Source of the DNA: Escherichia coli
GTDB lineage: Bacteria > Pseudomonadota > Gammaproteobacteria > Enterobacterales > Enterobacteriaceae
Direction: 5' to 3' (one strand)
NCBI RefSeq assembly: GCF_003334785.1
Contig: NZ_QOWV01000003.1
Length of the DNA: 64,000 nucleotides
Made by a program: the position numbers and the translations under genes
Shown: positions 16,590-16,975 of the stretch, piece by piece
Position numbering within the stretch: the first letter of the stretch is position 1
Layout: every line of letters starts with the position of its first letter
The notes under the pieces: model-generated
Seen by the model: the letters and a program-made list of their open reading frames with translations, nothing else
The model's database searches: none
Told to the model about the DNA's origin: nothing

Positions 16590-16975
16590 GCGGCCTGATA
16601 AGACGCGCGAGCGTCGCATCAGGCAGTCGGCACTGTTGCCGGATGCGGCGTAAACGCCTTATCCGGCCTACGGAGGGTGCGGGAATTTGTAGGCCTGATA
16701 AGACGCGCAAGCGTCGCATCAGGCAGTCGGCACCGTTGCCGGATGCGGCGTAAACGCCTTATCCGGCCTACGGAGGGTGCGGGAATTTGTAGGCCTGATA
16801 AGACGCGCAAGCGTCGCATCAGGCAGTCGGCACCGTTGCCGGATGCGGCGTAAACGCCTTATCCGGCCTACGGAGGGTGCGGGAATTTGTAGGCCTGATA
16901 AGACGCGCAAGCGTCGCATCAGGCATCTGGCACCGTTGCCGGATGCGGCGCGAGCGCCTTATCCGGCTTACCGAT
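16590..16975. repeat. Tandem array of four ~100-bp units, each containing a convergent REP pair (BIME-type array)
   Basis: Near-identical 100-bp unit aggcctgataagacgcgcaagcgtcgcatcaggcagtcggcaccgttgccggatgcggcgtaaacgccttatccggcctacggagggtgcgggaatttgt repeated with ~100-bp period; last copy diverged. Confidence 0.9.

Follow-up and report, generated by a model that had tools for sequence, protein, structure and literature searches.

What is the regularly repeated DNA that separates yjdM from yjdN in Escherichia coli, and how does it act on the two genes beside it? We examined it in a stretch of 64,000 nucleotides from an E. coli assembly (NCBI RefSeq GCF_003334785.1, contig NZ_QOWV01000003.1), referred to here as the window. 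An original prediction, made from the letters alone, had pointed to four tandem copies of a ~100-bp unit at this place. From Tandem Repeats Finder, the lag identity, and the locus and unit that it has in common with K-12, we assign the array (16592..16971, 3.8 x 100 bp, no strand assigned) as a four-unit allele of REP325, a BIME-2 (bacterial interspersed mosaic element 2) cluster in which Y and Z2 repetitive extragenic palindromes (REPs) alternate. The array is already known, named and experimentally studied, and the original prediction overlooked its identity as the much-studied REP325/naRNA4 locus (RF02564, PMC4550694). We regard it as very probable that the array, as REP325, plays a dual role in cis, as an exonuclease barrier for yjdM and a partly Rho-dependent attenuator before yjdN.

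Tandem Repeats Finder returned a single array at 16592-16971, with a period of 100, 3.8 copies, 97% matches, zero indels and a score of 702. A direct-repeat tool gave 183-nt direct repeats in three copies at an exact 100 bp spacing (95-100% identity), and at lags of 100, 200 and 300 the array matches itself with an identity of 0.97, 0.95 and 0.89, respectively, compared with 0.18-0.26 for all other tested lags. The periodicity and the copy number that had been read from the letters were therefore borne out, as was the composite nature of the unit, which pairs a Y and a Z2 REP in inverse orientation and so is a BIME. An inverted-repeat tool run over 16400-17150 returned zero pairs, though the palindromes are plain by eye, and folding was used in its place.

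Read on the plus strand, each unit comprises a 32-nt Y palindrome (GCCTGATAAGACGCGCAAGCGTCGCATCAGGC), a 13-nt linker (AGTCGGCACCGTT) joining Y to Z2, and a 30-nt Z2 palindrome in inverse orientation to Y (GCCGGATGCGGCGTAAACGCCTTATCCGGC), with a spacer containing CTAC-GGAGGGTGCGGGAATTT-GTAG. The array holds eight REP palindromes, arranged as four Y-Z2 pairs, and three identical 23-nt spacers, with Y on the plus strand alternating with Z2 on the minus strand. In both palindromes a stretch of 7 bp is followed by an AA/GC mismatch, and the stem is closed by a 4-nt loop, with 5 bp between mismatch and loop in Y and 4 bp in Z2; the stem mismatch is kept in all eight REPs. GTAG is kept beside six of the eight, those bordering the three spacers (CTAC...GTAG), while the outermost Y has none and the outermost Z2 carries GTAA. 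The elements are thus imperfect palindromes of 30-40 nt with a stem mismatch, GTAG in 6/8, an extragenic position and a highly repeated sequence, as is characteristic of REPs. 

Numbered by transcription order, the four units each read Z2, 13-nt linker and Y on the minus strand. Unit 1 (16892..16968) adjoins yjdM and is the diverged copy, with six substitutions in 77 nt and no spacer following it, as the original prediction of near-perfect repeats with a diverged last copy had it; its Z2 has the loop GCGCGAGCGC, GTAA replaces GTAG, and it is the counterpart of the yjdM-proximal unit of K-12. Units 2 (16792..16868) and 3 (16692..16768) are consensus copies identical to each other, and unit 4 (16592..16668), which adjoins yjdN, has substitutions at two positions and a Y without GTAG. 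Between the units, on the same strand, lie spacer 1 (16869..16891), which is the 'U motif' of Qian et al. (2015) and carries the GTAG/CTAC of both bordering REPs, and spacers 2 (16769..16791) and 3 (16669..16691), which have the same sequence. The exact spacer motif occurs three times in the 64-kb window, all within the array.

In an Rfam scan, the model RF02564, naRNA4 (nucleoid-associated noncoding RNA 4, also CssrE; curated gathering threshold 59.5 bits), matched the minus strand over the full model, 1-77, at all four units: 16968-16892 with 95 bits, 16868-16792 and 16768-16692 with 111 bits each, and 16668-16592 with 106.7 bits. The plus strand of the array reached only 53-55 bits, under the threshold. 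In MG1655, REP325 separates yjdM (phnA) from yjdN (phnB) and has six Y-linker-Z2 repeats connected by five identical 'U' spacers, is transcribed in the yjdM-to-yjdN direction, and has been published as the origin of naRNA1-6 (Qian et al. 2015, PMC4550694). By the definition of Ton-Hoang et al. (2012, PMC3333891), BIME-2 elements join inversely oriented z2 and y REPs through a short linker and are found as several copies in tandem. We class the array among them because its Y and Z2 REPs, named as in PMC4550694 for this locus, alternate in inverse orientation across a short linker, in tandem copies whose number varies between strains. A second REP pair in the window (14036-14116, plus strand), with phnD (14123..15139, minus strand) on one side and the phnE region on the other, also passes the threshold with 69.1 bits, so the model picks up other BIMEs as well.

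Palindromic repeats at a regular 100-bp spacing might also bring to mind a CRISPR-like array, and a cluster of small protein-coding genes might be suspected from the open reading frames (ORFs), 56-66 aa long, that both strands contain; we give either practically no credence. A CRISPR array was rejected, in agreement with the original prediction, since the three spacers are identical and the entire 100-bp unit repeats. The repeats moreover belong to a genome-wide REP family: REP-motif matches in the window number 16, where 0.39 would be expected, and a full-locus query matches a median of 21 places per E. coli genome. The ORFs are copies made by the repeat, lie in several frames on both strands, and are gone in single-unit alleles. 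Two of them, 16619..16819 and 16719..16919, exist as predicted, on the minus strand with identical 66-aa translations. The accompanying idea that the array produces an N-terminal extension of yjdM was wrong: the array is 3' of the yjdM stop, the 160-aa TTG extension of yjdM (16986..17468, a mechanical ORF) points away from it, and the ORF that overlaps both, 16777..17241, begins inside the array on the plus strand and is antisense to yjdM. RefSeq lists a 'hypothetical protein' between yjdN and yjdM in a few genomes, which is most likely one of the repeat-generated ORFs.

RefSeq annotation of identical DNA, together with the ORFs, places yjdM (phnA; a 111-aa zinc-ribbon protein, 16986..17321, minus strand) upstream and yjdN (phnB; a 147-aa VOC-family protein, 16085..16528, minus strand) downstream. 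The 457-bp spacer between them holds the array, which on the coding strand is 3' of the yjdM stop and 5' of the yjdN start and forms the 3' untranslated region (UTR) of yjdM. The stem of the first REP begins 18 nt past the yjdM stop (14 nt if GTAA is counted), and a gap of 63 nt (16529-16591) separates the array from the yjdN start codon. A consensus scan found a promoter-like site upstream of yjdM (CCGACA, 17 nt, TATAAT; 17389..17417, minus strand, 10/12, a pattern match only), a candidate start for a transcript that crosses the array, and no such site within the array itself or in the stretch leading from it to yjdN. The same type of scan gave no terminator-like hairpin with a U-tract at 16529-16985 on either strand; the array hairpins run into C-rich spacer or linker rather than a U-tract, and an intrinsic (Rho-independent) terminator was rejected for this reason.

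As minus-strand RNA, each 77-nt unit folds into two hairpins with -42.4 to -42.8 kcal/mol and z of -4.4 to -5.5 (unit 1, -42.4 kcal/mol, z -4.4; units 2 and 3, -42.8 kcal/mol, z -4.8; unit 4, -42.8 kcal/mol, z -5.5). Across RNA and DNA folds, the palindromes beat shuffled controls with z of -4.0 to -5.5, and the RNA of the whole yjdM-yjdN spacer folds at -212 kcal/mol (z -10.9). Long-range pairing between units in the whole-array fold was rejected as a biological structure, because co-transcriptional folding favours local hairpins, as seen in the units folded alone. The 23-nt spacer RNA (UACAAAUUCCCGCACCCUCCGUA) contains 10 C and 2 G and has no predicted structure (fold energy 0, spacer 16669-16691), and in a C-minus-G profile the spacers show the highest C-over-G skew inside the array.

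This anatomy, with stable hairpins that lack a U-tract in the 3' UTR of yjdM, no promoter-like site for yjdN, and C-rich unstructured spacers, fits and favours the dual role in cis. The array would be transcribed from the yjdM promoter as part of its 3' UTR, with two stable hairpins per unit. The hairpins would block 3'-to-5' exonucleases and so protect the upstream yjdM message, while the array would stop or attenuate most transcription ahead of yjdN, partly via Rho. Attenuation would leave a ladder of transcripts ending past successive hairpins and keep yjdN far below yjdM. In K-12, deletion of REP325 changes the yjdM/yjdN RNA ratio from ~35 to ~1, with yjdN up 8-10 fold and yjdM down, and alters growth; truncated transcripts form a ladder, and bicyclomycin raises read-through from 23% to 39% with the full REP325 only (Harris et al. 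2026, bioRxiv 10.64898/2026.03.23.713779). The mRNA-stabilising role that had been proposed from the letters has therefore been shown for REP325 in K-12. By analogy with these published K-12 experiments, the stabilising and attenuating effects most likely extend to the array in the window, and we infer that its four-unit allele behaves like the six-unit allele and that the C-rich spacers help to load Rho.

Several points weigh against this assignment of function. The functional data all come from the six-unit K-12 allele, largely from one preprint. In that work, REP325 fragments of two or four hairpins showed little effect of bicyclomycin and no Rho dependence, so an array of eight hairpins may not act like one of twelve; how far the array stabilised the message varied strongly with expression level and with whether yjdN was present; and REP325 is cited there as not recovered in an in vitro Rho-binding screen (bioRxiv 10.64898/2026.03.23.713779). 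Most E. coli (61/112 genomes sized) carry a single unit and no spacer, which implies that a large array is unnecessary for the function of the locus, and some unit counts from public assemblies may be assembly collapses.

A bolder extension of the dual role in cis is that the number of units serves as an evolvable dial for the yjdM:yjdN ratio, with the spacer RNA, and not the palindromes, as the Rho-active part. We offer it tentatively and would wager against it. Spacer number equals unit number minus 1, so that there are none in a single-unit allele, three in the window and five in K-12. The folded hairpins in between could bring several spacers close together as a composite Rho loading site, which would explain why Rho dependence is seen with the full array only. 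If this were so, the six-unit 'model REP' of K-12 would be an atypical expanded allele.

An older proposal for REP325 acts in trans. Here, each unit yields a 77-nt naRNA that binds HU, bridges REP cruciforms chromosome-wide, and condenses the nucleoid (Qian et al. 2015). The scores of 95-111 bits that the units reach against the naRNA4 covariance model agree with it, as do the reported HU binding, the decondensed nucleoid on REP325 deletion and its rescue by plasmid-borne naRNA4, the loss of chromosome conformation capture (3C) contacts, and condensation in vitro (PMC4550694); an enlarged nucleoid in the deletion strain was also seen in a 2019 preprint. The idea that HU and naRNA4 condense the nucleoid has since come into dispute. 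The 2026 preprint, which has the same senior author as the 2015 paper, found that nucleoid size is unaffected by deletion or overexpression, and reported no stable HU-cruciform-naRNA4 complex and no REP-REP Hi-C contacts (bioRxiv 10.64898/2026.03.23.713779). In the 2015 work itself, antisense RNA was equally effective and a REP-less plasmid also condensed (PMC4550694), so the nucleoid effect lacks sequence specificity. A dose-dependent global architecture is also hard to fit to a species in which 54% of sampled genomes have a single unit, and we consider this explanation improbable.

At the DNA level, the original prediction had offered such arrays as candidate platforms for gyrase and integration host factor (IHF). 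The IHF part did not hold: the IHF consensus WATCAANNNNTTR is absent in and beside the array, its three matches in the window lie elsewhere (15229, 28051 and 57381), and IHF sites belong to BIME-1, whose long L linker often contains one (Ton-Hoang et al. 2012, PMC3333891). For BIME-2 elements as a class, binding by gyrase is plausible (PMC6379681). By this analogy the array would be a strong, transcription-independent site of gyrase binding and cleavage that absorbs supercoiling and topologically insulates yjdM-crfC from the phn operon, and this would be compatible with a role at the RNA level. Gyrase cleavage sites are significantly over-represented in BIME-2, in Y more than in Z2, with the signal up under rifampicin (PMC6379681); the REPs of the array are Y and Z2, the combination by which BIME-2 is defined, and as single-stranded DNA its palindromes fold at -12.9 and -13.8 kcal/mol (z -4.4 to -5.4), with no shuffle equalling them. 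On the other hand, cleavage in vivo occurs at only a subset of BIME-2 elements, and yjdM, yjdN, phnA and REP325 have no entry in the searched supplementary text of that study (PMC6379681). We rate this as a minority possibility, rather unlikely as the explanation of the array.

How variable the array is among strains was determined with queries of the two flanks only, joined across any array, with the flank-to-flank span giving array length. An earlier full-locus query was dropped, since arrays of more than four units were not sizable with it and overlapping pieces were not joined. The intact locus is present in 5350-5372 of 5426 complete E. coli genomes. Unit counts were taken from two systematic samples of complete E. 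coli genomes (n=112 loci sized), with kinship ignored and from a collection rich in laboratory strains. One unit is the commonest state (61/112 genomes, 54%), followed by six (16/112), two (14/112), five (11/112), three (5/112) and seven units (2/112), and the four units of the window are rare (3/112, ~3%). BL21 has five units and O157:H7 two.

Within K-12, the reference W3110 record and an MG1655 assembly have six units, W3110-P has four units with a 457-bp spacer as in the window (100% match over 22 kb), and GM4792 has three. These subline differences reflect either change on a laboratory timescale or assembly collapse. With 1-7 units across the 112 genomes and six, four or three in K-12 sublines, the predicted copy-number hot spot is genuine, even if some assemblies may have collapsed repeats. 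Removing two inner units from the K-12 J53 allele would give the window allele, which consists of the first unit, two consensus units and the last one. The J53 allele itself differs from the MG1655-type allele by one base in the second unit (K-12 derivatives L001 and L014). Insertion sequences are found nearby: an IS4 between phnC and yjdN in J53 (L014 510-1856), an IS1 near the locus in strain 3502 (L015 2447-3144), where the crfC N-terminus is lost, and an IS1 listed under the match in three further strains; among the insertion sequences inspected, none is inside the REP array.

Among 15 alleles read, the inner units are homogenised within a strain and the end units diverged, and the inner variants differ between lineages. 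The yjdM-proximal Z2 with the loop GCGCGAGCGC is found in nearly all of the 15, including every single-unit one. The homogenisation of inner units points to recombination rather than transposition as the way in which the array changes size, and strain-to-strain differences in unit number would arise by recombination or slippage between near-identical 100-bp units. Such instability is also what would be expected of a neutral or selfish repeat, an ancient REP doublet, perhaps seeded by RayT, whose array is an unstable by-product of slippage or unequal recombination and whose effects on neighbouring genes are incidental. The range of 1-7 units without a dominant expanded state, the changes within K-12 laboratory lineages, and the contrast of homogenised inner with diverged end units all suit this explanation. 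Variable tandem BIME numbers between strains at one locus have been described previously, and GTAG, which RayT recognises, is kept in the six inner REPs (PMC3333891). A RAYT (REP-associated transposase) elsewhere in the genome, for which the original prediction suggested looking, was checked at the species level: rayT (b0228) is present in K-12 MG1655 and in 3575/5426 E. coli genomes (66%, at megablast sensitivity), with no match in the 64-kb window.

Against a purely neutral repeat stands the conservation of the element. Across the alleles and relatives read, variation is almost all in loops and linkers, with a single stem change and no compensatory changes to count; a regex-collected unit list forces stem conservation and is unusable as evidence of constraint. 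Beyond E. coli, the exact spacer junction had zero matches in representative genomes of ~100,000 species, and a degenerate Y-linker-Z2 junction pattern matched only six stretches in this set, all between yjdM/yjdN homologues. These are in Escherichia whittamii, Escherichia sp. E1V33 (two units and a variant spacer), Pseudocitrobacter faecalis, P. vendiensis, and two short metagenome-assembled contigs, L017 (uncultured Clostridiales UMGS1583) and L021 (Leptolinea sp.). Both contigs have a yjdM protein 100% identical to that of E. coli and a single-unit REP element, and are probably E. coli contamination in metagenome bins. In relatives with Y-linker-Z2 at this locus, YjdN protein identity goes down to 76-77%. 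That other Escherichia species and Pseudocitrobacter retain it there indicates that the element at yjdM-yjdN is older than E. coli, the long arrays being lineage-specific expansions. This retention in E. whittamii, Escherichia sp. E1V33 and the two Pseudocitrobacter species, the near-confinement of variation to loops and linkers, and the shift in growth and yjdM/yjdN ratio on array deletion in K-12 (bioRxiv 10.64898/2026.03.23.713779) count against neutrality, which we hold to be possible, if on the unlikely side.

The relatives also offer a view of the spacer and of array decay. In Pseudocitrobacter, the Y palindrome is preceded by GCGGGAGGTTGTAG or GGGGATTTGTAG, and the resemblance of these to the right half of the E. 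coli spacer suggests that the spacer derived from the element's own flank. E. whittamii has one and a half units (L019 3196-3448), the first Z2 being cut after GCCGGATG and running straight into spacer-like GTGTGGGAATTTGTAG and a second Y; its locus carries an internal deletion in an older two-unit array.

Outside the array, RefSeq annotation of identical or near-identical DNA places phnC at 15164..15952 (minus strand) and crfC, divergent from yjdM, from 17722 on the plus strand. The crfC gene is intact (742 aa) in the window and annotated as frameshifted in FDAARGOS_1248 (L002 3123-4401) and MIN9. The phnE region (13230-14080) contains two overlapping minus-strand ORFs, 13448..14080 and 13230..13598, and phnE appears split, with the break at an 8-bp unit, CGCCAGCA, present in ~2.9 copies at 13590-13612; the arrangement is presumably akin to the allele of phnE in K-12, which is cryptic and phase-variable. 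Other REP motifs, single or paired, are at 6592, 8704-8786, 22605, 35483 and 63870, of which that at 22605 lies just upstream of an Rfam match to the enterobacterial small RNA STnc630 (22634-22799, plus strand, 181.8 bits). One tRNA gene is found at 53142-53214 (minus strand).

REP325 has been the 'model REP' in a long debate on the role of these highly abundant E. coli repeats, which sets chromosome organisation through HU and naRNA4 against local tuning of transcript stability and termination. Seen across the population, the six-unit form that was studied is a minority, one unit is the norm, and the number shifts among K-12 sublines. Results from K-12 REP325 may therefore not generalise, and the natural alleles of 1-7 units provide a ready-made series for dose dependence. 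For annotation, the array gives rise to spurious ORFs, which are still entered as hypothetical proteins in some RefSeq records. What is new here is incremental: the range of alleles, in which one unit is typical, four are rare and K-12 has six, together with its shifts among K-12 sublines; the element's conservation at yjdM-yjdN in other Escherichia species and in Pseudocitrobacter; and the C-rich spacer as a candidate Rho-loading element.

Compared with known systems, the array shares with the REPIN/RAYT system (RayT/TnpA-REP, b0228) an inverted REP doublet, 5' GTAG and a stem mismatch, of which GTAG and the mismatch are required for RayT binding and cleavage (PMC3333891); it differs in that its two outermost REPs have lost GTAG. 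With BIME-1, or RIP, elements (IHF-binding REP pairs) it has in common an intergenic inverted REP pair. Those elements combine Z1 and Y, have a long L linker with an IHF site and are single, whereas the array has a 13-nt linker, is tandem and lacks an IHF consensus, and assignment to BIME-1 was rejected on linker length and the missing consensus. The BIME-2 family (Gilson, Bachellier, Hofnung; PMC3333891) resembles the array in Y/Z2 alternation, tandem copies, GTAG/CTAC beside the stems, and variable number. The 13-nt linker of the array is, in contrast to the family, locus-specific: the degenerate pattern across it matched only at yjdM-yjdN among the genomes of ~100,000 species.

The REP between malE and malG is reportedly a 3' UTR stabiliser and Rho-dependent attenuator, as Newbury et al. 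in 1987 and Espeli et al. in 2001 are said to have described. Both it and the array present hairpins without a U-tract between two co-transcribed genes, with expression biased to the upstream gene, whereas REP325 is unusually long and Rho dependence is reported for its full array only. The closest counterpart is REP325 of K-12 itself, which has the same locus, strand, Y - 13-nt linker - Z2 units and 23-nt spacer. The window allele has four units, eight hairpins and three spacers in place of the six units, 12 hairpins and five spacers of K-12, and its inner units are of the consensus type, without the MG1655 variants CCATT, GTTGGCACTG and GGATGG. It is identical to the allele of FDAARGOS_1248, and in its first and last units it does not differ from K-12.

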